Shown: one piece after another, positions 8,788-39,510 of the stretch | Position numbering within the stretch: position 1 is the first letter of the stretch | Layout: every line of letters begins with the position of its first letter | NCBI GenBank assembly: GCA_903861205.1 | Contig: CAIOTC010000017.1 | Coordinates: 1 to 42,525 of the forward strand | DNA: 42,525 nucleotides | Direction: 5' to 3' | DNA from: an uncultured bacterium | GTDB lineage: Bacteria; Patescibacteriota; Minisyncoccia; Phycocordibacterales; DATDWN01 | Position numbers and translations under genes: made by a program | The notes under the pieces: model-generated | The model's input: the letters and a program-made list of their open reading frames with translations, nothing else | Told to the model about the DNA's origin: nothing | The model's database searches: none

Positions 8788-8910
8788 CAAATTTCTTACG
8801 AGCCAACACTTTTCCGTCGCCAGAATATTTTTCTGCTGAAAAATTTCTTCCTGCTCGTCTCTTCACGGGCTCCGCAATGCGCCGTAAAAGCGTCGGCTCG
8901 ACAAAATTTG
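8788..8910. repeat. Family L element copy 3 (short form)
   Basis: The sequence caaatttcttacgagccaacactttt ... aaaagcgtcggctcgacaaaatttg is about 90% identical to copies at 35812-35950 and (reverse complement) 24610-24744. Confidence 0.85.
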
Positions 8911-19430: not shown

Positions 19431-21443
19431 ATGAATAAGAAAACACTTACGGGACCGATATCAATCAATTCCAAGGGAATTGGTTTTTTTGATTTGCCGG
19501 ACAAAAAAGAGGAATCGCTGGAAATTCAGCCTGAGAATTTGGCGCGGGCTTTTCACGGAGATGTCGTTGAAGTCCAAAAGCTTGGTGGTCCTAAACCGAG
19601 AAAAAGTCTTGGTCGGGCGAGAGAAGTCAAAGAGCAAGCCAAAGTGGTCAGAATAATTTCTCGCGCCAAAACTCAATTCGTCGGCATAATCCAAAAAACA
19701 GACGACAAATCATTTTTGATTCCGGATGATAAAAGAATGTACGTGGATATTTTTATTGACCCAAAATCTTTAGCAAGGACAGTCCTTGCTAAAACTGAAA
19801 ACCAGAAAATTCTTGTAGAAATCACCGACTGGCCGGAAACGGAGAAAAATCCGCGCGGAAAAGTTGTTAAAGTCATCGGTACAGCCGGCGAAAACAACAC
19901 CGAGATGGAATCAATCGTTTTGGAAAAAGGTTTCCGAGTCGACTTCCCTGCCGAAGTTTTGGCCGAGGCGGAAAAAATTAAAAATGAATACAAAAGTCAT
20001 TTTGCCGAGGAAGTGAAAAATCGCCGCGACATGCGCGAAACTTTAACCATGACTATCGATCCTGCCGACGCCAAAGATTTTGACGATGCCATTTCTTTTA
20101 AAGAACTTTCCGACGGAACTTTTGAAATCGGCGTGCATATTGCCGACGTGTCATATTTCGTCACGCCCGGCACAGTGCTTGATCGCGAGGCGGAAAAACG
20201 AGGACTGTCAGTTTATCTCGTCGATCGAACTATTCCGATGTTGCCGGAAGTTTTAAGTAATGACCTTTGTTCTCTCAATCCAAACGAGGACAAGTTCACT
20301 TTTTCGGCCGTTTTCAAAATCGACAAAAATGCCAAGATTTTAGACAAATGGTTTGGCCGAACTGTCATTCACAGCGACAAAAGATTTTCATACGAAGACG
20401 CTCAGAAAGTTTTGGACAATGCGAGCTCACCTGGTGTCAACGGCGAAGCAACGTGGTCACCGGGTGTGGGCGCATTGTCCAAACTAAACAACCTCGCAAA
20501 AATTCTGGAGAAGCAAAAATTTGGCGCAGGCGCAATTAATTTTGAAACAGACGAAGTTAAATTCGTTTTGGACGCGGCCGGCAAACCTCTTTCAGTTTAC
20601 AGAAAAACTCGCCTGGACACGCACAAGCTTGTCGAGGAATATATGCTCCTGGCCAATCGCGCGGTCGCCGAACATATTTTCCATTCTCAAAATAACGAGT
20701 CCTTAGCAAGAACTGTTCTTGCTAAAAAACAAAGTGTTTACAGAATTCACGGCAAACCTGATCCGGAACGCATCGAAGCATTGGCGTTTTTTTTGAAAGC
20801 GCTTGGTTTTGATTTGCGAAACGAAAAAGGTTCTGTCACCTCGCGCGACATCAACAAACTGCTCAAGCAGGTGGAAGGCACACCGAACGAAGAACTGATC
20901 AAAACCGCCACCATTCGCAGTATGGCCAAAGCCGTTTACTCGACCAAAAATATCGGGCACTTCGGTCTGGCTTTCAGATTTTACACGCACTTCACCTCGC
21001 CTATTCGCCGATATCCCGATTTGCTGGTGCACAGATTTTTGGAACGCGAAATCGATGGCGGAAAAATTGCTCCAAATGAATACGAGAAATTTGAAAAGTC
21101 ATGCTTGGCACTCTCCGAACTGGAAAAGAAAGCCAGCGACGCAGAAAGAGCCAGCATCAAATACAAGCAGGTTGAATACATGCAATCGCATGTCGGCGAA
21201 ACTTTCCAAGGCACTATCACCGGCGTAACCGACTGGGGAATTTACATCGAGGAAAAAATTACCAAATGCGAAGGCATGGCAAAACTACGCGACCTGAATG
21301 ACGACTATTATGTCCTCGACGAAAAAAATTACACAATCCGCGGCCAGCGCACCGGCAAAAAATACACACTTGGTGATTCTGTCACATTCAAAGTTGTGGC
21401 GGCAGACATGGAGAAAAGAGTTTTGGATTACCAGATTTTGTAA
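19431..21443 (+). CDS. rnr: Ribonuclease R (RNB family 3'-5' exoribonuclease)
   Basis: The RNB core (TIDPADAKDFDDAIS, VYLVDRTIPMLP, FTSPIRRYPDLLVHR) and a C-terminal S1 domain are present. The size is 670 aa. Confidence 0.9.
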   Translation: MNKKTLTGPISINSKGIGFFDLPDKKEESLEIQPENLARAFHGDVVEVQKLGGPKPRKSLGRAREVKEQAKVVRIISRAKTQFVGIIQKTDDKSFLIPDDKRMYVDIFIDPKSLARTVLAKTENQKILVEITDWPETEKNPRGKVVKVIGTAGENNTEMESIVLEKGFRVDFPAEVLAEAEKIKNEYKSHFAEEVKNRRDMRETLTMTIDPADAKDFDDAISFKELSDGTFEIGVHIADVSYFVTPGTVLDREAEKRGLSVYLVDRTIPMLPEVLSNDLCSLNPNEDKFTFSAVFKIDKNAKILDKWFGRTVIHSDKRFSYEDAQKVLDNASSPGVNGEATWSPGVGALSKLNNLAKILEKQKFGAGAINFETDEVKFVLDAAGKPLSVYRKTRLDTHKLVEEYMLLANRAVAEHIFHSQNNESLARTVLAKKQSVYRIHGKPDPERIEALAFFLKALGFDLRNEKGSVTSRDINKLLKQVEGTPNEELIKTATIRSMAKAVYSTKNIGHFGLAFRFYTHFTSPIRRYPDLLVHRFLEREIDGGKIAPNEYEKFEKSCLALSELEKKASDAERASIKYKQVEYMQSHVGETFQGTITGVTDWGIYIEEKITKCEGMAKLRDLNDDYYVLDEKNYTIRGQRTGKKYTLGDSVTFKVVAADMEKRVLDYQIL

Positions 21444-21467: not shown

Positions 21468-21508
21468 AATCCTCCGGCTTCGCCACCTCCTTTAAGAAAG
21501 GAGGAATT
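21468..21508 (+). repeat. 42-nt two-hairpin unit (family U), forward orientation
   Basis: The unit reads aatcctcc-ggcttcgcc-a-cctccttt-aag-aaaggagg-aatt. Confidence 0.8.
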
Positions 21509-21516
21509 GATGCATT

Positions 21517-21946
21517 AATCTCCCTTTTTTAAAGGGAGTGGCCGAAGGCCGAGGGATTTTTAGTGCATTCCACAATTTTTCTTACACAACTCTCTAAATT
21601 AGTTTTTATATCAATATCTCTGAATCTAATTATTTTGACTCCAGCATTCTTTAAAATCTCATCTCTCACCTCATCATTTTCTATTTTTGCATCATGACTA
21701 ATGCCGTCAATTTCAATTGCAAGATTTAATTTTGAACAATAAAAATCAACTATGTAGTTGTTGATAGGTCTCTGTCTCAAAAATTGGCAACCTAATTTTT
21801 TATCTTTTATTTCTTTCCATAGCAATACTTCAGATAATGTTGATTCGTTCCGTAACTTTTTGGAAAATTTTTTTAGATTTTTATTGTAAATGAGTTTCAT
21901 AAAATCCCTCCCCGCTTCGCGGTACTCCCTTTAAGAAAGGGAGATT
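21517..21946 (-). mobile_element. Candidate compact element: a DUF559 endonuclease gene bounded by inverted family-U units (21517-21558 and 21903-21946)
   Basis: The left end is aatctcccttttttaaagggagtggccgaaggccgagggatt. The reverse complement of the right end is aatctccctttcttaaagggagtaccgcgaagcggggagggatt. The unit pair at 29077-29172 shows the same two-end arrangement with only 12 nt between the ends. Confidence 0.5.
21529..21900 (-). CDS. DUF559 / Vsr-like (PD-(D/E)xK) endonuclease domain protein
   Basis: LLWKEIKDKKLGCQFLRQRPINNYIVDFYCSKLNLAIEIDGISHD...IIRF is the DUF559 pattern. The last 9 codons (NPSAFGHSL*) are encoded by the flanking repeat unit. Confidence 0.8.
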   Translation of the reverse strand: MKLIYNKNLKKFSKKLRNESTLSEVLLWKEIKDKKLGCQFLRQRPINNYIVDFYCSKLNLAIEIDGISHDAKIENDEVRDEILKNAGVKIIRFRDIDIKTNLESCVRKIVECTKNPSAFGHSL

Positions 21947-21956
21947 TGAATGCGGG

Positions 21957-24254
21957 TTATTTCGCCACGGCAACGGCTTGATCAAATGCGACCGAGAGAA
22001 GTTTCGAGCCACCACCGAGACCCATGGTTACGCCGTACAAAATCCCCGCACGGGACATTGTTTCGCGGTTGTGGGTAATGACAATGAGTTGCGAACGTTT
22101 GGAAAGATTTTCCACCATATCGCCATACTTTTTGGAATTGGCTTCGTCGAGAGCGGCGTCTGTTTCGTCTAGAATAATAAACGGCGGAGGATTGACTTGA
22201 GAGATGGCAAAAAGCAAAGCGATGGAAGTCAGTGCCCTCTCCCCGCCGGAAAGCATCATCAAACCTTTCACTTTCTTTTTCGGTAACACAACATCGATAT
22301 CAATCCCATCCTCACTTTCCGCTCCGGTTTCTTCAATGGCAAGGGCAGCCCTTGCCATTTCATCACCGTCTTCATTTTCAAATAGGTCATCAATTTCTTT
22401 TTTCTTGCGTTTTGGCGCGGAAATAACGGACAAGCTGGCCTCACCACCACCGAACATCAGAGCAAAATATTCTTTGAACTGCTGGTTGATTTTTTCCACG
22501 CCGGTTTTGAATTCGTTGGAAAGTCGTTCATCCAAATCTTTTATGAGATCTGTCAGCGAATCGGCCGAACCGGAAAGGTCAGTCAGCTCTTTTGCCAGAA
22601 ACTCATCTCGCTCCGAGGCATCAGTGTATTCTTTCATTACATCGGCCCCACCGATTCCGCCGGCATCTTCCAAACGAATTTTTATTTTTTCGATTGTTCG
22701 TCTGCGTTCTTCCTGATTTGCGCGTGGTTCGTCAAAATCAAAAACAAGCGACTCAAATTGCAAAACAGCCGTGCCAAGCATCATTCCAAGCTCTGTTAAT
22801 TCCCTATTGAAATCCTCTTTGACTATTCGCAAAGTTTCCTCCTCCGACTGCAAGCTGTGAATTTGCGATCTGACTTCCTGCTCCTCCGCCATGATTCTGA
22901 AAACCGCTTTTTCGGCGTCGCGATTGGTATCTTTTTCCGTGTTTATTTTTTCCTGTAAAGCCGAATACTCGCGGGACAATTTCGCTTCGTTTGCAATAAC
23001 ATCACCCGCTTCACTGGCAGCAATTTCCTTTTTTCTCCTCAAATCCGCCAAATCTTTTTGGGCTTCAACCAAAAGCGACGTATCCACCTTGTCTTTATTA
23101 CTTTCAATAAAATCTGACAAAAGTTTTCCAATTTCATCAATTTTCCTTATCAAAATATCCACTTTCTCCTGGTCCCAGGTGTCACCTGGGACCAGTTTTT
23201 TGGAATCGGAAATTATTTGTTCTATTTCTTTTTGAACAACTTCGACAGAAACAAGCGTGACTGTTTTGTGCAAATATGAGTTGGCCAGTTCCTCCTGCTT
23301 TTTTATCATTCGGGCCAAGGAGGTTATCTCACCGTCCAGTTCGCCGGACTGACGTAAAAGCTCGTCTTTCTTTTTTCGCGTTTCGTGAAGTTCCCTCTCG
23401 AGTGAAATCAGTTCGTCCGACATGACATCGCGATGTTGTGCGCCTTCCAAAATTTTCTTGGCTTCGGAGAGTTCCTCTTGCAACTTTTTTTCCTGTTTTT
23501 CCAGCGGATGTTTTTTGCCGGAAATATTTTTCTCAATGCGCTTTATATATTCGTCCTCGCGTTTGCAATACTCCAGCGCTTTATCCTGCAAATCTTTTTT
23601 CATTTCAAGCGTCTTCTCCACTTTTTCCACCTGCTTTTTGAGGAATTTGATATGCGGCAAAATTTCTCGTCGAAGAGATTCCACTTGTGCAATATTTTCA
23701 CGAGTTTTCAAAAGTTTTTTCTCACTTTCCTGTTTTTTGTATTGATAAAGTTTCAAACCGAGCGCATCCTCAATCATGGCTTTGCGTTCTTTGATGCTGG
23801 CATTCAAAATTCTGTCCGCTTCGCCCTGCGAAATAATGTGATGTCCGGACGAACCGATATGCGCCGAATGCAAAAGTTCCAACACATCTCGCAAACAAAC
23901 TTGCGAACCGTTGATGGAATACTCGTTGACACCGTCGCGATGCACAACACGTTCAATGATCACCTCCTCGAAATCCACAGGTAGAAATTTGGATTTGTTG
24001 TCGAAAATTATTTTGACGCTTGCCCGATTCGCTCTAGGCAAATCCCCCGCGCCGTTAAAAATCAAATCTTCGCCTTTTTTGCCACGCAGGGATTTGATCG
24101 ACTGCTCGCCAAGAACAAAAGAAAACGCCTCGGCCACATTGGACTTGCCCGAACCATTCGGCCCAACCACCGCAGTAACATTCGAAGTGAAAAGTAATTC
24201 GCTCTTTTTGGCGAAACTTTTGAATCCGGTGAGTTCAATAGATTTCAGATACAT
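21957..24254 (-). CDS. smc: SMC-family chromosome segregation ATPase, short form (765 aa)
   Basis: The Walker A head (VVGPNGSGKSN), long coiled coil, signature motif LSGGERALT and Walker B FIILDETDAALD are present. I could not recognise a canonical hinge. Confidence 0.8.
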   Translation of the reverse strand: MYLKSIELTGFKSFAKKSELLFTSNVTAVVGPNGSGKSNVAEAFSFVLGEQSIKSLRGKKGEDLIFNGAGDLPRANRASVKIIFDNKSKFLPVDFEEVIIERVVHRDGVNEYSINGSQVCLRDVLELLHSAHIGSSGHHIISQGEADRILNASIKERKAMIEDALGLKLYQYKKQESEKKLLKTRENIAQVESLRREILPHIKFLKKQVEKVEKTLEMKKDLQDKALEYCKREDEYIKRIEKNISGKKHPLEKQEKKLQEELSEAKKILEGAQHRDVMSDELISLERELHETRKKKDELLRQSGELDGEITSLARMIKKQEELANSYLHKTVTLVSVEVVQKEIEQIISDSKKLVPGDTWDQEKVDILIRKIDEIGKLLSDFIESNKDKVDTSLLVEAQKDLADLRRKKEIAASEAGDVIANEAKLSREYSALQEKINTEKDTNRDAEKAVFRIMAEEQEVRSQIHSLQSEEETLRIVKEDFNRELTELGMMLGTAVLQFESLVFDFDEPRANQEERRRTIEKIKIRLEDAGGIGGADVMKEYTDASERDEFLAKELTDLSGSADSLTDLIKDLDERLSNEFKTGVEKINQQFKEYFALMFGGGEASLSVISAPKRKKKEIDDLFENEDGDEMARAALAIEETGAESEDGIDIDVVLPKKKVKGLMMLSGGERALTSIALLFAISQVNPPPFIILDETDAALDEANSKKYGDMVENLSKRSQLIVITHNRETMSRAGILYGVTMGLGGGSKLLSVAFDQAVAVAK

Positions 24255-24609: not shown

Positions 24610-24744
24610 GGCAACAAAATTTCGTCGAGACAATACTTTTTGGGCGCATTGCGGAGTGCGTGAAGACACGAGCAGGAAGAAATTTTCCAGCAGGAAAATA
24701 TTCTGGCGACCAAAAAGTGTTGGCTCGTAAAAAATTTTGTTGCC
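24610..24744. repeat. Family L element copy 4 (short form, opposite orientation to copies 3 and 7)
   Basis: The sequence ggcaacaaaatttcgtcgag ... ctcgtaaaaaattttgttgcc has a reverse complement that aligns along its whole length with 8788-8910. Confidence 0.85.
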
Positions 24745-25449: not shown

Positions 25450-25467
25450 ACACGGAGTATAACACAC

Positions 25468-25540
25468 AAATTTTCAATTTACAATTTCAAATTTTCAATG
25501 AATTTCCCAATGAACCAATTTTCAAAAATTCTTCAATCTA
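25468..25540. repeat. AT-rich hairpin family W, partial copy 1 (upstream of rnc)
   Basis: The sequence ttttcaatgaatttcccaatgaaccaatt matches the centres of the copies at 26780, 34033 and 34512. Confidence 0.6.
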
Positions 25541-25629: not shown

Positions 25630-25828
25630 AAAAATAATTAGCAGAATTTCGTCGATGTCGTTTCGTTTTCGGAGCATCCACAGCCCGCGAGCATGGTTTT
25701 GTCAACGACCCCGCCTTCGGGGTGGGGCTCATTGACAAATCGCGGGCGAGGACAGAGAAAATTTTTCGCCGGAAAATTTTCGTCTCCGAAAAGGAAACAA
25801 CTCGTAAGAAATTCTGCTAATTATTTTT
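25630..25828. repeat. Family L element copy 5 (long form)
   Basis: Perfect 21-nt outer arms aaaaataattagcagaatttc / gaaattctgctaattattttt overlap the nusB stop codon. The core shares ccttttcggagacgaaa, ttctctgtcctcg, gatttgtcaatgagcccc, ggggtcgttgacaaaaccatgctcg and ggatgctccgaaaa with 37952-38184. Confidence 0.85.
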
Positions 25829-26711: not shown

Positions 26712-26779
26712 GTCTTACAATATAGTGTATCAAATGACAGATATGATATCAACAAACAAGAATTGCGAACTGAACCGAA

Positions 26780-26892
26780 CAATTTCCAATGATCAATTTT
26801 CAATTTTCAATGAATTTTACAATGAACCAATCGTCCAATTGAAGAATTGATTCATTTATTGGAAATTGAAAATTGTTACTTGAAAATTTCCT
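26780..26892. repeat. Family W hairpin copy 2 (between the nusB start and the rpmF stop)
   Basis: The arms are caattttcaattttcaatgaat / attcatttattggaaattgaaaattg. The centre is caatgaaccaatcgtccaattgaagaattg. Confidence 0.75.
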
Positions 26893-27120
26893 TTATCTTC
26901 CTTCCTTCTGATTTGCTTTTGCTTTCTTTGTTCGTTTTTCGATTTTTGCCTGCACGTCCAAAACCTGTCGGCCTTTGTACTGGCCGGTCACTAAAGAAGC
27001 TCGGTGCCGCAAGTGCGGAACACTGGAATTTTTGTCCATGGTGACAGCCGGGTTCGACAATCTGTGATGAGATCGCGTGTTGCCTCGCTGGCTCCTGTTG
27101 TGTCGCATTCGTACTACCAT
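26893..27120 (-). CDS. rpmF: 50S ribosomal protein L32. Start moved to MVVRMRH.
   Basis: MVVRMRHNRSQRGNTRSHHRL...HLRHRASLVTGQYKGRQV matches the L32 pattern (R.sk.r...RRsH..l........c...Ge..l.H). Confidence 0.8.
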   Translation of the reverse strand: MVVRMRHNRSQRGNTRSHHRLSNPAVTMDKNSSVPHLRHRASLVTGQYKGRQVLDVQAKIEKRTKKAKANQKEGR

Positions 27121-28355: not shown

Positions 28356-29048
28356 TCAAACCAGGTTTTTGCAAAAAGATTTGCGATGAAAAAGGGAGAG
28401 ACCGTGAGTTTGAATGGCAGTGCGATGCGCGAGCGTGCCATAACCTTTGTGAATATGAAAATTGTAAAGCGGATATTTTTTGCTCGCTTTGCACATTAGT
28501 TTGTCACGCGAAACTTTTGCCAAAATCGACGCCCAGGCGATAATTTTTTCTTTTTCGTCGCCTTTTATAATAGTAAATTGTTTTACTTGTTTAACAGAAT
28601 ATCCGTTTGTAAGTTCAGCTGGAACTTTTAATCCCCCATCTAATAAAATTTTTAATTTAAAATTTTTAATTTTTAAATAATTTTTAATGTCTAAATTTCC
28701 AAAACCTTTTGCAATGGCTTTTTTGATGCATTTGGAAATTCCGATTTTGTCGATTTCTTTGTTTGAGATATGAACAATTTGAGCTTGCAGAAGGGCACCT
28801 TCTGCAGAATTCGTGCAGAAGGTGCCCTTCTGCAACTGTTCCAAGACTTTTGCATACTTCTCGCGAGATTCCGGAGAAAGTTTTTTGCTGTCTTTGCCGA
28901 GTGGTGGCAAACGCCCCGCCACACCGGCGGGCAAGTTGTTTCGCTTCAGTTTGGCGTACAATTTTTCCTCACACATCACAATCCCCACCGTCACAGGCCC
29001 TGCCAATGGTCCCCTCCCAACTTCGTCAATGCCGATAATGTAGTTCAT
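28356..29048 (-). CDS. rnhB: Ribonuclease HII. Start moved to MNYIIGIDEVGRGPLAGPV.
   Basis: GIDEVGRGPLAGPV, DSKKLS and ASILAKVSRD are RNase HII motifs. The gene carries a 51-nt double hairpin and an AT-rich in-frame block. Confidence 0.9.
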   Translation of the reverse strand: MNYIIGIDEVGRGPLAGPVTVGIVMCEEKLYAKLKRNNLPAGVAGRLPPLGKDSKKLSPESREKYAKVLEQLQKGTFCTNSAEGALLQAQIVHISNKEIDKIGISKCIKKAIAKGFGNLDIKNYLKIKNFKLKILLDGGLKVPAELTNGYSVKQVKQFTIIKGDEKEKIIAWASILAKVSRDKLMCKASKKYPLYNFHIHKGYGTLAHRTAIQTHGLSLFHRKSFCKNLV

Positions 29049-29076
29049 AAAAATAGAGTTTACGCATTTGTGCACC

Positions 29077-29172
29077 ATTCTCCCTTTCATAAAGGGAGTG
29101 GCCGAAGGCCGAGGGATTTTTTGATTTCAAAATCCTCCGCCCTGCGGGCACCTCCTTTAAGAAAGGAGGATT
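29077..29172. repeat. Gene-less pair of family-U units (reverse then forward orientation, 12-nt spacer)
   Basis: The sequence is attctccctttcataaagggagtggccgaaggccgagggatt - ttttgatttcaa - aatcctccgccctgcgggcacctcctttaagaaaggaggatt. Confidence 0.8.
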
Positions 29173-29248
29173 AATGCGTGAGCTATTAAAGAATATCTTA
29201 TCACAAAAATAAAAGCCCCGGCGTTTCCGCGCGGGACTGTACAACTTT

Positions 29249-29659
29249 TTATTTAATCTGATCAATAATAGAAAAAACTTCTCCTTCACCATCGTAACTT
29301 CTTTTACTACCCCTGACACCTACACGTGCGACTTCTCTCAATAATTTGTGTCCTTCTACCGAAAAAGTCACGGCAATCGATTGAGTTTCCCAGTCCTTAT
29401 GAGCAGGATCATATGACACATATACACCGAATGTCTGATTATCTTTCAGATAATCCCATAATCCAATTCTTCCGCCTTTCACATTGTATAACTCAAATGC
29501 CTGACGGATTGCCAATTTTACAGCGGCGTTTTCCGTTTTTAAATTGATAACTTCACTTTTCTTGTTGGTGACCTCAACGTCTTTTTTTATCAAGACTCCT
29601 ACTACCAGCAAATTTGTGATTATCATAGTAAGAACCAGAGCAGCGACTGTTTTACTCAT
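29249..29659 (-). CDS. Hypothetical membrane-anchored protein (136 aa, N-terminal TM helix)
   Basis: AALVLTMIITNLLVVGVLI forms the TM helix. I recognised no family. Confidence 0.5.
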   Translation of the reverse strand: MSKTVAALVLTMIITNLLVVGVLIKKDVEVTNKKSEVINLKTENAAVKLAIRQAFELYNVKGGRIGLWDYLKDNQTFGVYVSYDPAHKDWETQSIAVTFSVEGHKLLREVARVGVRGSKRSYDGEGEVFSIIDQIK

Positions 29660-33783: not shown

Positions 33784-34032
33784 ATGGTAAATGCGGAGGT
33801 TGTTAGGACCGGAAATGAAAACAACGTAAACCTCATCAGAAGGTTCACCAAACGCGTCCAGGGATCGGGCGTTTTGCCTCGTGTCCGAAGCATCCGCTAC
33901 TCGTCTCGCAAGCAATCCGAGTACGTTAAAAAGAAAAAAACTCTCAAAGTTTTGAAACGCCGCGAAGAAGTCAACGAGCTCATCAAAATGGGAAAAATGG
34001 TGGAGAATACCAGGGGACCGAAGAAAAAATAA
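33784..34032 (+). CDS. rpsU: 30S ribosomal protein S21. The start is uncertain between 33775 and 33784.
   Basis: MVNAEVVRTGNENNVNLIRRFTKRVQGSGVLPRVRSIRYSSRKQSEYVKKKK fits the S21 pattern (ALRRFKR...G.l.e.R.R..Y.kPSe.rk). Confidence 0.8.
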   Translation: MVNAEVVRTGNENNVNLIRRFTKRVQGSGVLPRVRSIRYSSRKQSEYVKKKKTLKVLKRREEVNELIKMGKMVENTRGPKKK

Positions 34033-34136
34033 TTTTTCAAGTATCAATTTCCAATTTCCAATGAATTTCTCAATGAACCAATTGTCCAATTGAAGAATTG
34101 GAAAATTCATTGGAAATTGGAAATTGGAAATTTTTA
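34033..34136. repeat. Family W hairpin copy 3 (between rpsU and ybeY)
   Basis: The arms are caatttccaatttccaatgaattt / aaattcattggaaattggaaattgg. The centre is ctcaatgaaccaattgtccaattgaagaattgg. Confidence 0.8.
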
Positions 34137-34142
34137 GTAACT

Positions 34143-34523
34143 ATGAACAACATTTTCTCCATAACCAACACTACGCGAGGCGAAGTTCCTGGTGTTGATT
34201 TTTTGCCTATTAAGGACTCTGTACTGGGTAAAAAATACGAACTTTCACTGGTTTTTGTCGGCGATAAAAAATCACAAACGCTCAACAACAAATATCGAAA
34301 ATTTAACAAACCGACAAATTGTCTCAGTTTCTCGCTCGGCAAAAATTCCGGAGAAATTTTCATCAATTTGGGCAAGGCAAAAAAAGAAGCGCCGAGCTTT
34401 GGCATGAAATTCGAAAAGTTCATAATTTACTTGTTTATTCACAGTTGCTTGCATTTGAAAGGAATGGATCATGGGAGTATAATGGAGAAAGCAGAAGAAA
34501 AAATGCTAAAAATTTTCAAGTAA
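34143..34523 (+). CDS. ybeY: rRNA maturation endoribonuclease YbeY. Start moved to MNNIFS.
   Basis: TNCLSFSL and the metal-binding motif HSCLHLKGMDH are present. The size is 126 aa. Confidence 0.85.
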   Translation: MNNIFSITNTTRGEVPGVDFLPIKDSVLGKKYELSLVFVGDKKSQTLNNKYRKFNKPTNCLSFSLGKNSGEIFINLGKAKKEAPSFGMKFEKFIIYLFIHSCLHLKGMDHGSIMEKAEEKMLKIFK

Positions 34524-34620
34524 CAATTTCCAATTTCCAATAAATGAATCAATTTTTCAATTGAACAATTGGTTCATTGGAAAATTCATTGAAAATTGGA
34601 AATTGGTCATTGAAAATTTC
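34512..34620. repeat. Family W hairpin copy 4 (between ybeY and ftsA; approximately the reverse complement of copy 2)
   Basis: The sequence is aaattttcaagtaacaatttccaatttccaataaatgaatc...gattcattgaaaattggaaattggtcattgaaaattt. Its centre is the reverse complement of the copy 2 and 3 centres. Confidence 0.8.
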
Positions 34621-35811: not shown

Positions 35812-35950
35812 TTTGAACTAAAATTTCTTACGACCCAACACTTTTCCGTCGCCAGAATATTTTCCTGCTGGAAAATTTCTTCCTGCTCACCTCTTCACGG
35901 GCTCCGCAATGCGCCGTAAAAGTGTCGGCTCGACGAAATTTTAATTCAAA
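35812..35950. repeat. Family L element copy 7 (short form)
   Basis: The sequence tttgaactaaaatttcttacgacccaacactttt ... aaaagtgtcggctcgacgaaattttaattcaaa aligns with 8788-8910. Confidence 0.85.
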
Positions 35951-37951: not shown

Positions 37952-38184
37952 AAAAATTTCTTAAAACATTACCTTTTCGGAGACGAAAGCCCGTCCAGCG
38001 ACGGGCTTTCTCTGTCCTCGGCCTCGATTTGTCAATGAGCCCCTCTCCAGTTTTAAGGTCTGGCCTTGGGAAATTGGCTGTTTAAGGCCAGACCTTTGGA
38101 ATCCAAAACTGGGGAGGGGTCGTTGACAAAACCATGCTCGAGGCCTGCGGATGCTCCGAAAAGGTAATGTTTTAAGAAATTTTT
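37952..38184. repeat. Family L element copy 8 (long form) carrying a nested double hairpin at its apex (38047-38112)
   Basis: Perfect 24-nt outer arms are aaaaatttcttaaaacattacctt / aaggtaatgttttaagaaattttt. The core is collinear with the reverse complement of copy 5. TAGTGGTGA follows. Confidence 0.85.
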
Positions 38185-38496: not shown

Positions 38497-39426
38497 ATGA
38501 ATCAATCTTTCGACTTAATCATTATCGGTGGCGGACCTGCTGGAGTGAGTGCGGGGGTTTATGCGGCGCGGAAGAGATTGAAAACTTTGCTGGTTACGGC
38601 GGATTTTGGAGGGCAATCGATCGTTTCGGACAGCATAGAAAACTGGATTGGCACGCCAAAAATTTCGGGCAAAGAGCTGGCCGAAAATTTGAAAAAACAC
38701 CTCCTTTCCTACGCCGGTGACATCGTCGAAATACACGAAGCAGAATTCGTCAGAGACATTGCCAAATCAGACGGCAATTTTTCCGTTACAACTGACAAGG
38801 GCGTTTACGAAACAAAATCAATTCTCGTCGCCACCGGTAGCGGCCGACGCAAACTGGAAATTCCCGGCGCCAGCGAGTTCGACAACAAAGGTGTCACCTA
38901 TTGCGCTTCGTGCGACGGTCCGCTTTTTGCGGGACAGGACGTGGTAGTTATCGGTGGAGGCAATGCCGCTCTCGAGTCGGCCGCCCAGCTTTTGGCATAT
39001 TGCAAATCAGTTACTTTGCTCAATCGCTCAGAAAAATTGAAAGGCGATGAAATTACCATCGAAAAACTTTTGCAAAATCCGAAATTCAAAATTATTAAAA
39101 ACGCCGCGCCGACCGAGATCAGGGGCGATAAGTTCGTTACCGGCATTGTTTATGAGGACACTTTGACCGGAGAAAAACACGAAATCGCCGCGCCGGGAAT
39201 TTTCGTCGAGATCGGCCTAGTGCCAGCCACCATGTTCGCCAAAAATATTTTAGAGCTCAACAAAATCGGCCAAATCCCCGTCGATCCGAAAAATCAACAA
39301 ACCGCCGTCCCCGGAATTTGGGCTGCCGGAGACTGCACCGACGCTCTCTATCACCAAAACAACATCGCCTCCGGCGACGCCGTGCGAGCTCTTGAGGACA
39401 TCTACTTGTGGCTGAAAACGAAGTAA
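38497..39426 (+). CDS. trxB: Thioredoxin-disulfide reductase
   Basis: FAD motif IIIGGGPAGVSAG, redox-active CASCDG, NADPH motif VIGGGNAALE and GIWAAGDC are present. The size is 309 aa. Confidence 0.9.
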   Translation: MNQSFDLIIIGGGPAGVSAGVYAARKRLKTLLVTADFGGQSIVSDSIENWIGTPKISGKELAENLKKHLLSYAGDIVEIHEAEFVRDIAKSDGNFSVTTDKGVYETKSILVATGSGRRKLEIPGASEFDNKGVTYCASCDGPLFAGQDVVVIGGGNAALESAAQLLAYCKSVTLLNRSEKLKGDEITIEKLLQNPKFKIIKNAAPTEIRGDKFVTGIVYEDTLTGEKHEIAAPGIFVEIGLVPATMFAKNILELNKIGQIPVDPKNQQTAVPGIWAAGDCTDALYHQNNIASGDAVRALEDIYLWLKTK

Positions 39427-39510
39427 ATCCTCCGCCCTGCGGGCACCTCCTTTAGGAAAGGAGGATTAAATCTCCCTTTTTTAAAGGGAGTGGCCGAAGG
39501 CCGAGGGATT
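39426..39510. repeat. Gene-less pair of family-U units (forward then reverse, directly abutting)
   Basis: The sequence is aatcctccgccctgcgggcacctcctttaggaaaggaggatt-a-aatctcccttttttaaagggagtggccgaaggccgagggatt. It starts on the trxB stop codon. Confidence 0.8.

Follow-up and report, generated by a model that had tools for sequence, protein, structure and literature searches.

BoxC repeats, later called PIT elements or triplex motifs (TM), have been known in E. coli since the 1990s and occur in thousands of copies across hundreds of genomes. We know of no function, origin or associated enzyme for them. To our knowledge, DUF559 is likewise a very large protein family of unknown function, and its only characterised relatives are Vsr and one homing endonuclease. 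In this study, we analysed a 42,525-nt (42.5-kb) stretch of DNA from an uncultured Patescibacteriota bacterium (GenBank assembly GCA_903861205.1, contig CAIOTC010000017.1), referred to as the window, which carries seven repeat units of about 42 nt and a DUF559 gene framed by such units. Judged by their sequence, the units are members of the known intrastrand-triplex repeats (BoxC/PIT/TM_ECO, class II purine motif) in a new sequence family. We found strong evidence that the positional link between DUF559 genes and these repeats is real and general, which makes DUF559 a candidate enzyme partner for the triplex repeats. The partnership is apparently unreported, since searches on DUF559, ycjD, sequence words and triplexes found no paper tying DUF559 to triplex repeats in the literature searched.

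The intrastrand triplex motifs were first named BoxC, then PIT elements and then TM_ECO (Holder et al. 2015, Nucleic Acids Research, PMC4666352; Hoyne and Maher 2000 as cited there). The E. coli consensus is CCCTCNCCC-N3-6-GGGNGAGGG-N3-GGGNGAGGG, with 23 TM_ECO copies in MG1655 and 3610 copies in 262 proteobacterial genomes, and the copies are always intergenic (PMC4666352). TM_ECO forms a stable triplex in vitro, as observed by circular dichroism and nuclear magnetic resonance, and inverted pairs always consist of one type A and one type B copy (PMC4666352). The loci show raised local genome variability and instability. Holder et al. never found mobility functions near the motifs, and their text mentions no nuclease (PMC4666352).

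An earlier note on this stretch, made from the letters alone, had placed seven units in the window, and three independent scans recovered all of them at the same coordinates. The pattern CYCCYTTN4AARGGRG, run as an IUPAC scan over the 42.5 kb, matched the seven unit sites only, where chance alone would give 0.13 matches. From 97 units of many phyla we built a covariance model, which scored these seven at 46-65 bits; the next-best full-length hit in the window had about 10 bits. A generic hairpin finder returned these seven units, and none besides, as perfect homopyrimidine/homopurine hairpins. Each unit has a perfect 8-bp all-pyrimidine/all-purine stem.

The earlier note described each unit as two hairpins. 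This anatomy is wrong: the units are three-arm triplex modules, with a mirror third arm in 7/7 of them. On the purine-rich strand, a module runs from the pyrimidine arm through a loop to the purine arm, and from there through a linker to the third arm. The 5' arm AATCCYYC is not a plain flank and is a mirror repeat of the arm of the second hairpin. In an alignment of many genomes, the 5' segments AATCCCCC, AATCCTCC, AATCCCTC, AATCCCTCC, AATCCCTCT and others covary with the second hairpin as its mirror image, neither as its copy nor as its complement. The third arm is the purine arm in reverse, with G opposite G and either A or T opposite A; thus the purine arm AAAGGGAG is accompanied by the third arm GAGGGATT, GGAGGGG by GGGGTGG, and AAAAGGAGGGG by GGGGTGGTTAT. 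This rule is the code of DNA triple helices of the antiparallel purine motif (G·G-C, A·A-T and T·A-T).

To evaluate the third-arm rule, hairpins were chosen with the third arm disregarded. In the window, a full-length code-obeying mirror arm was present in 7/7 units, and the direct-repeat control gave 0/7. We extended the comparison to 51 loci (290 kb) that had been selected by DUF559 protein similarity alone, blind to repeats. Here, 93 of the 132 asymmetric hairpins had a code-obeying arm, against 32 in the direct-repeat control; the mirror arm outscored the direct one in 84 cases and the direct outscored the mirror in 5, with 43 distinct arm combinations represented. Linker lengths were bimodal, 2-5 nt in 51 cases and at least 10 nt in 62, and 58 of the 62 long linkers fold as a hairpin. 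As the linker is either short or closes on itself as a GC hairpin, the third arm always starts beside the duplex end. The first hairpin of the earlier note is this linker, whose role is apparently geometric.

In the window units, the first loop is 3 nt and the second connector is a self-closing GC hairpin of 10-14 nt. This connector exceeds the published loop limits (1-6 nt for ITxF; 0-10 nt for Hoyne et al.), with the arm ends still juxtaposed. With a hairpin where the short second loop would be, the window units would escape a search at the published settings, which allow loops of 1-6 nt. The claim that both hairpins covary was borne out: among the 97 units, covariation exceeded that of all 500 shuffles and all slid controls, and of the four pairs in the first hairpin, which the search pattern leaves unconstrained, three had changed on both sides, in 37, 13 and 9 cases. 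Both hairpins fold as single-stranded DNA, with z-scores of -2.6 to -4.1.

Two other readings of the unit structure were rejected. A switch-like fold, in which the 5' arm pairs with the 3' arm by Watson-Crick rules, fits the CCCCC and CCTCC classes only; the CTCCC, CCTCCC, TCTCCC and many other classes have a mirror-image 5' arm and not a copy. An RNA element was also dismissed, as no Rfam family matches and the A-to-T substitutions of the third arm suit the DNA purine motif only. Only tRNAs reached the gathering score in an Rfam 15 scan, and around the DUF559 locus there were only sub-threshold miRNA-like matches, at most 23.7 bits against gathering scores of at least 39.

The link between gene and repeat was assessed in the 51 DUF559-selected loci, with 80 loci around RNase R in related Patescibacteria (664 kb) as the control. 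We found a homopyrimidine/homopurine hairpin within 250 nt of the gene in 46 of the 51 DUF559 loci, on both sides in 22, so that, in these loci, the refuting condition of the earlier note, other DUF559 copies without flanking units, did not hold. The first 100 nt hold 38 hairpins upstream and 24 downstream, and bins at a distance hold 0-3. Overall, 137 hairpins were found in the 290 kb of DUF559 loci versus 10 in the 664 kb of controls, about a 31-fold difference in density. Covariance-model matches reached 1.30/kb within 200 nt of a DUF559 gene versus 0.067/kb further off (19-fold), and the model gave 0 matches in the 80 RNase R loci. The sole DUF559 gene among the control loci belongs to a distant relative of the window organism and is 37% identical; its position is the RNase R/SMC gap, as in the window, and it comes with mirror-armed hairpins of its own (a = CCTCTCCC, b = CCCTCTCC). 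The earlier note had likened the whole to REP/RAYT, with a PD-(D/E)xK nuclease as the enzyme. The positional part of this likeness is strongly supported by the 46/51 loci and the 19-fold density, and binding or mobilisation of the units by the protein may accompany it.

A repeat-first sample, from a collection-wide pattern scan that gave at least 117 loci, covers Patescibacteria, Gracilibacteria, Saccharibacteria, Bacteroidota, Gammaproteobacteria, Cyanobacteria, Elusimicrobia, Nitrospirota and other hosts. In 6/117 of these pattern-selected loci, which come from several phyla, DUF559 lies within 61 nt of a unit, and no other protein family recurs beside units across unrelated loci among the matches listed. 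The layout is stereotyped. Upstream, an antisense module stands 2-16 nt before the DUF559 gene and its third arm gives a GGAGG-like ribosome-binding site; downstream, a sense module coincides with the stop codon or follows it closely. Either side often has a further module that makes up an inverted pair. Adjacent gene-less modules in other genomes are inverted in 22/24 cases, and their arm classes differ in 15/24. We also found that the arm sequence class tracks the DUF559 protein subclade across phyla: one class is common to the window protein, Taylorbacteria, Fulvivirga and Cytophagaceae, so that the candidate phyla radiation groups with Bacteroidota, and another is common to a Clostridia locus and Melainabacteria.

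Several DUF559 loci have further features. Tandem arrays of up to six or more triplex modules, spaced by about 39 nt or by 120-150 nt, lie immediately upstream of DUF559 genes at L122 (2700-2960), L143 (1540-2380) and L153 (2614-3771). Module-flanked DUF559 copies with in-frame stops or truncations were seen at L151, L164 and L168, which suggests that the gene often decays while the repeats stay. On two plasmids, of Synechocystis sp. B12 (L264) and PCC 7002 (pAQ6, L265), DUF559 adjoins genes of the defence or toxin type, BREX PglX on one plasmid and DUF1156 with a PIN-domain gene on the other; the pAQ6 gene is flanked by a different G-rich repeat (GGGGGCTAGGGGG...).

The window protein (123 aa) matches PF04480 (DUF559) over residues 8-111 with E = 9e-29 and 99.9 bits, against a cut-off of 20.6. 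The residues D52, E63, D65, G66, H69 and D76 are all present and are invariant across 20 homologues (motif EIDGISHD), and the nuclease looks intact from these residues. PDB entry 3HRL, an endonuclease-like protein of N. gonorrhoeae, was matched at E = 1.3e-10 with the single sequence and at 1.2e-36 with the 20-homologue profile. The profile also matched the catalytic domain of the homing endonuclease I-Bth0305I (3R3P) at E = 1.4e-5; this enzyme defines the Vsr-like EDxHD family (PMC3239194). The window protein consists of the nuclease core only (about 110 aa), with no separate DNA-binding domain. DUF559/PD-(D/E)xK is the sole domain found in it, and no IS200/IS605-like HUH Y1 transposase was found.

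The gene for this Vsr-like (EDxHD-type) nuclease occupies 21529-21900 on the minus strand, between the RNase R gene (19431-21443, plus) and the SMC gene (21957-24254, minus), which converge on the locus. Unit 1 (21468-21508, plus; CCTCC type; 46.4 bits in the covariance model) starts 24 nt past the RNase R stop codon. It comprises, on the plus strand, the third arm AATCCTCC (21468-21475), the linker hairpin GGC-TTC-GCC (21476-21484), the pyrimidine arm CCTCCTTT (21486-21493) followed by the loop AAG, and the purine arm AAAGGAGG (21497-21504). Unit 2 (21517-21558, minus; CTCCC type; linker GGCC-TTC-GGCC; 64.6 bits) forms a palindrome with unit 1. Its centre, read directly from the sequence, is ATGCAT (21510-21515), a 3' extension common to both units; this extension is conserved as ATGCRT at 21510-21515, 21950-21955, 29174-29179 and 29062-29067. 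Read on the minus strand, unit 2 encodes the last 9 codons (NPSAFGHSL) and the TAA stop of the DUF559 open reading frame (ORF), just as the earlier note had it. Unit 3 (21903-21946, plus; CTCCC type; linker CCGC-TTC-GCGG; 46.5 bits) is antisense to the gene and lies 2 nt upstream of its ATG. On the DUF559 strand, its third arm is GGAGGGATT (21911-21903), which is Shine-Dalgarno-like and stands a few nucleotides before the start codon. The same arrangement upstream of DUF559 recurs at five other loci (L064, L066, L076, L102 and L142).

The other four units form two gene-less pairs, and every pair in the window joins one CCTCC-type unit with one CTCCC-type unit. The pair at 29077-29172 has the reverse-forward layout with 12 nt in between, as previously described, and its third arms face each other. 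Its left half is unit 4 (29077-29118, minus; CTCCC type; 61.2 bits) and its right half unit 5 (29131-29172, plus; CCTCC type; 58.6 bits), and the pair lies between a hypothetical gene (29249-29659, minus) and the gene for RNase HII. The pair at 39426-39510 is gene-less as well and has the forward-reverse layout with 1 nt in between, so that the purine arms face each other. Unit 6 (39426-39467, plus; CCTCC type; 58.3 bits) begins inside the TAA stop codon of the thioredoxin reductase gene. Unit 7 (39469-39510, minus; CTCCC type; 64.6 bits) lies 14 nt past the stop of the convergent GDSL hydrolase gene, and its sequence is identical to that of unit 2. The long RNase HII ORF (28356-29090, minus) takes its first codons from the unit at 29077-29118. 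The Pfam domain of RNase HII covers this ORF only from residue 19 onward, and translation more likely starts at an ATG near 29049. Units can thus create false N-terminal extensions, as this ORF starts inside one.

To compare filled and empty sites, we examined the hpa operon of Deinococcus. The hpaB|oxidoreductase junction is empty in D. radiodurans, D. ficus and D. deserti, where it measures 0-33 nt and has no complete modules. In D. proteolyticus and D. wulumuqiensis, the same junction holds an insert of about 490-620 bp that consists of a module, DUF559 and an inverted module; in D. proteolyticus, it also includes outer inverted repeats of 15 bp. A near-identical cassette occupies another junction, oxidoreductase|hpaE, in Deinococcus sp. 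NW-56. Because the empty junctions lack a complete module and near-identical modules occur at two junctions, the modules there probably came with the gene. Between RNase R and SMC, relatives of the window organism have 7-76 nt or unrelated small ORFs. Presence and absence of the gene at orthologous sites, for which the earlier note proposed to search relatives, are seen in Deinococcus and in the RNase R/SMC gap; the 80 syntenic loci defined no nucleotide-level boundary. Among predicted inversion targets, genes that lie between inverted repeats, those for DUF559 are overrepresented 14-fold (PMC9881135).

In D. wulumuqiensis (L272, about 1090-1170), a small palindromic insertion (TACGGATTCCGATTGAATCTG...CAGATTCAATC) apparently breaks the DUF559 frame close to the 5' end, and the annotated coding sequence begins past the insertion. 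For the window organism, five to twelve contigs with identical RNase R, DUF559 or thioredoxin reductase proteins all have the same layout, and many end at repeats. Contigs from independent metagenome assemblies of the same organism (L255, L256, L262 and L263) end at or just past unit loci, as they should if the source genome has multiple copies of the units.

In E. coli MG1655, the DUF559 gene is ycjD (b1289). Its last codons (SPSP, stop) overlap a degenerate CCCTCTCCC...GAGCGAGGGGG triplex motif, and 168 nt downstream follows copy #9 of TM_ECO in the list of Holder et al. The gene is present in 3378/5426 complete genomes. Motif-like places were counted in an evenly spread sample of 37 ycjD-positive genomes and 22 ycjD-negative chromosomes. 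All 37 ycjD-positive genomes have 15-33 such places; 13 of the 22 ycjD-negative chromosomes have 2-5, and all sampled genomes with 5 copies or fewer are ycjD-negative. This bears out the co-occurrence named in the earlier note only in part, since the other 9 ycjD-negative chromosomes have 10-23 places. These counts are consistent with a link between ycjD and the repeats, yet they are confounded by phylogroup, and the repeats can persist without ycjD. Holder et al. list 19-30 copies in phylogroup A and B1 strains and 1-2 in B2 (PMC4666352), and ycjD replaces the eefRABCD operon in phylogroups A, B1 and C, as it does independently in two more lineages (PMC12817139). In K-12 (NC_000913.3, 1351204-1351760; L274), a partial duplicate of the ycjD 3' end lies between the degenerate motif and TM_ECO #9. 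Some ycjD-negative E. coli still match this duplicate and the motif (positions 11-231 of a 572-nt probe).

Taken together, we consider it somewhat probable that a selfish, palindromic nuclease cassette occupies the locus, in which inverted intrastrand-triplex modules frame a free-standing DUF559 gene. In such a cassette, the third arm would bind the purine arm in antiparallel orientation, forming G·G-C, A·A-T and T·A-T triplets, and gene and modules would move and be inherited together. One module would give the DUF559 gene its ribosome-binding site and another its stop codon. The gene-less inverted pairs (29077-29172 and 39426-39510) may be non-autonomous or deletion derivatives, as REP/BIME are to RAYT and MITEs (miniature inverted-repeat transposable elements) to transposons. 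The modules may fold when the DNA is transiently single-stranded or supercoiled. The nuclease could then recognise or nick the folded module or the two-fold symmetric pair, and break repair, gene conversion or slippage by the host would copy or delete the segment. Such copying and deletion might also explain the instability reported around the E. coli repeats. Tentatively, we further suggest that DUF559 nucleases, including YcjD, may be the missing partners of the BoxC/PIT/TM repeats, as structure-specific enzymes that drive the spread of the repeats and local instability. Gene and repeats would then make up an unrecognised class of mobile elements, with a PD-(D/E)xK nuclease and triplex-forming ends, spread horizontally across most bacterial phyla.

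Several observations weigh against the cassette. Most modules stand apart from the gene, as 111/117 pattern loci have no adjoining DUF559 gene, and 9/22 ycjD-negative E. coli chromosomes keep 10-23 copies (O157:H7 has 15), where the proposed co-occurrence fails. There are two opposite layouts: third arms face the gene in the window, and purine arms face it in Deinococcus and at L048. No target-site duplication was recognisable at the filled and empty Deinococcus junctions and the exact element ends could not be defined there, and the window's own loci showed no strain-level presence/absence polymorphism. The triplex was undetected in vivo by dimethyl sulfate footprinting in E. coli (PMC4666352). 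Binding and cutting of the modules by DUF559 are putative, and a 123-aa nuclease cannot carry out strand transfer alone; therefore any mobility must use host repair or recombination.

The main rival to the cassette treats the repeats as the target. A homing-type DUF559 gene would cut or land in pre-existing triplex repeats spread by an unrelated process, and the flanking units would be split or duplicated target sites used as homology arms. The homology of DUF559 to the I-Bth0305I domain (PMC3239194) speaks for it, as do the excess of units over genes and the persistence of units in E. coli lineages without ycjD. In the window, moreover, the unit that holds the DUF559 stop codon has the same sequence as one of the gene-less units, and the DUF559 locus resembles a normal forward-reverse pair plus the gene and one extra unit. 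However, the empty Deinococcus junctions have no complete module, and near-identical modules flank the gene at two junctions there. Module class follows the DUF559 subclade across phyla, and a module in fixed orientation regularly supplies the DUF559 ribosome-binding site. On balance, we regard the target reading as unlikely, though it deserves serious attention.

The remaining readings are weaker. Triplex or palindromic repeats could be fragile, recombination-prone sites that gather small selfish genes, DUF559 being merely the commonest, with no specific protein-DNA relationship. Such a passive association would suit the instability at TM_ECO loci (PMC4666352) and the replacement of an operon by ycjD at a variable locus (PMC12817139). 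We judge it improbable, since DUF559 is the sole recurrent neighbour among the matches listed, architecture and orientation are stereotyped, and module class tracks the protein clade. Alternatively, the units could be expression or insulation signals (terminators, translational control elements or mRNA stabilisers) and the gene-less pairs plain bidirectional terminators with no link to mobility. Units do lie right past the stops of the convergent RNase R, thioredoxin reductase and GDSL hydrolase genes, one arm is Shine-Dalgarno-like for DUF559, and unit 2 contains one weak terminator-like match (21539-21551). But terminator-like matches (a GC hairpin and a U run) are not above the level of shuffled sequence (2 versus 1.9), and the reading of the units as mere terminators, named in the earlier note, was rejected on this count. 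A code-obeying third arm with A-to-T substitutions is needless for termination, and among the units both orientations relative to transcription are found. At the syntenic and neighbouring loci of 80 related genomes they are absent, they match no Rfam family, and PIT elements have neither promoter nor terminator activity in E. coli (cited in PMC4666352). The expression-signal reading is thus very improbable.

The window carries other repeats, and the earlier note's suggestion that the DUF559 protein possibly recognises or mobilises the other palindromes as well was not supported, as these palindromes are unrelated families. An intergenic repeat of 123 nt occurs in three copies that are 88-94% identical (8789-8909, plus; 24616-24738, minus; 35820-35942, plus) and has complementary ends (AAATTTCTTACGAG... 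/ ...CTCGACGAAATTT). Sequence similar to it fills part of the RNase R-SMC gap in two relatives (L177 and L179). Palindromic elements of about 200 nt lie at 25630-25828 and 37952-38184, with a weaker copy at 1293-1462; one of them has a terminal inverted repeat of 31 nt without mismatch. Their internal core and the end motif CTCGTAAGAAATT also occur in the 123-nt repeat, and they look MITE-like and unrelated to the triplex units. AT-rich intergenic arrays of AATTTCCAATTT-like words, in direct and inverted copies, were found at 25461-25526, 26773-26905, 34015-34132 and 34503-34619.

The pairing of DUF559 with the repeats gives two orphans one concrete hypothesis, which is testable in E. coli K-12 with ycjD and 23 TM_ECO copies. 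If true, it would be a second repeat-enzyme partnership beside REP-RAYT and a natural case of a DNA triple-helix code maintained by selection. In practice, the cassettes break metagenome assemblies and add spurious N- and C-terminal extensions to annotated proteins.

The locus was also compared with known systems. Like bacterial MITEs, the gene-less pairs are short, non-coding, palindromic intergenic elements with inverted ends that look like a gene-deleted longer element. They differ in that no DDE transposase parent and no target-site duplication were found, and their ends are triplex modules and not plain terminal inverted repeats. With the EDxHD homing endonuclease I-Bth0305I (3R3P; PMC3239194) and Vsr, the window protein shares a homologous catalytic domain with conserved acidic and histidine residues. 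An apparently selfish behaviour, seen as presence or absence at orthologous sites in Deinococcus and in the RNase R/SMC gap, also recalls homing endonucleases. In contrast to I-Bth0305I, the window protein has no NUMOD/helix-turn-helix DNA-binding region, and its gene lies outside any intron or intein and has structured-repeat flanks, which are not normal for homing genes.

The likeness to REP/BIME-RAYT lies in a single-copy enzyme gene between inverted short structured repeats that are also dispersed without the gene, often as inverted pairs. Recognition would in both be based on structure rather than purely on sequence, which we count as a further likeness. The enzyme here is a PD-(D/E)xK/Vsr-like nuclease, not an IS200/IS605-like HUH transposase, and the repeat is a three-arm triplex-type module, while that of RAYT is a simple GTAG-tagged hairpin. 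We know of no transposition chemistry for DUF559. The DUF559 locus is thus like REP-RAYT in layout and is not a member of that system.

The closest match remains BoxC/PIT/TM. Both follow the same one-strand plan of a pyrimidine arm, a purine arm and an antiparallel G/A/T third arm, and both are intergenic, reach tens of copies per genome and are patchy between close relatives. Both form inverted pairs of two subtypes, A with B in E. coli and CCTCC with CTCCC in the window, and one E. coli copy adjoins the DUF559 gene ycjD. The sequences differ, with AATCCYYC...CYCCYTTT-N3-AAARGGRG-ATT in the window family versus CCCTCNCCC...GGGNGAGGG in E. coli, and the second loop is a GC hairpin of 11-12 nt in the window and 3 nt in E. 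coli. The hosts of the present units include Patescibacteria, Bacteroidota and Melainabacteria. Finally, the published work gives no protein associated with these repeats, whereas the present units pair with DUF559.

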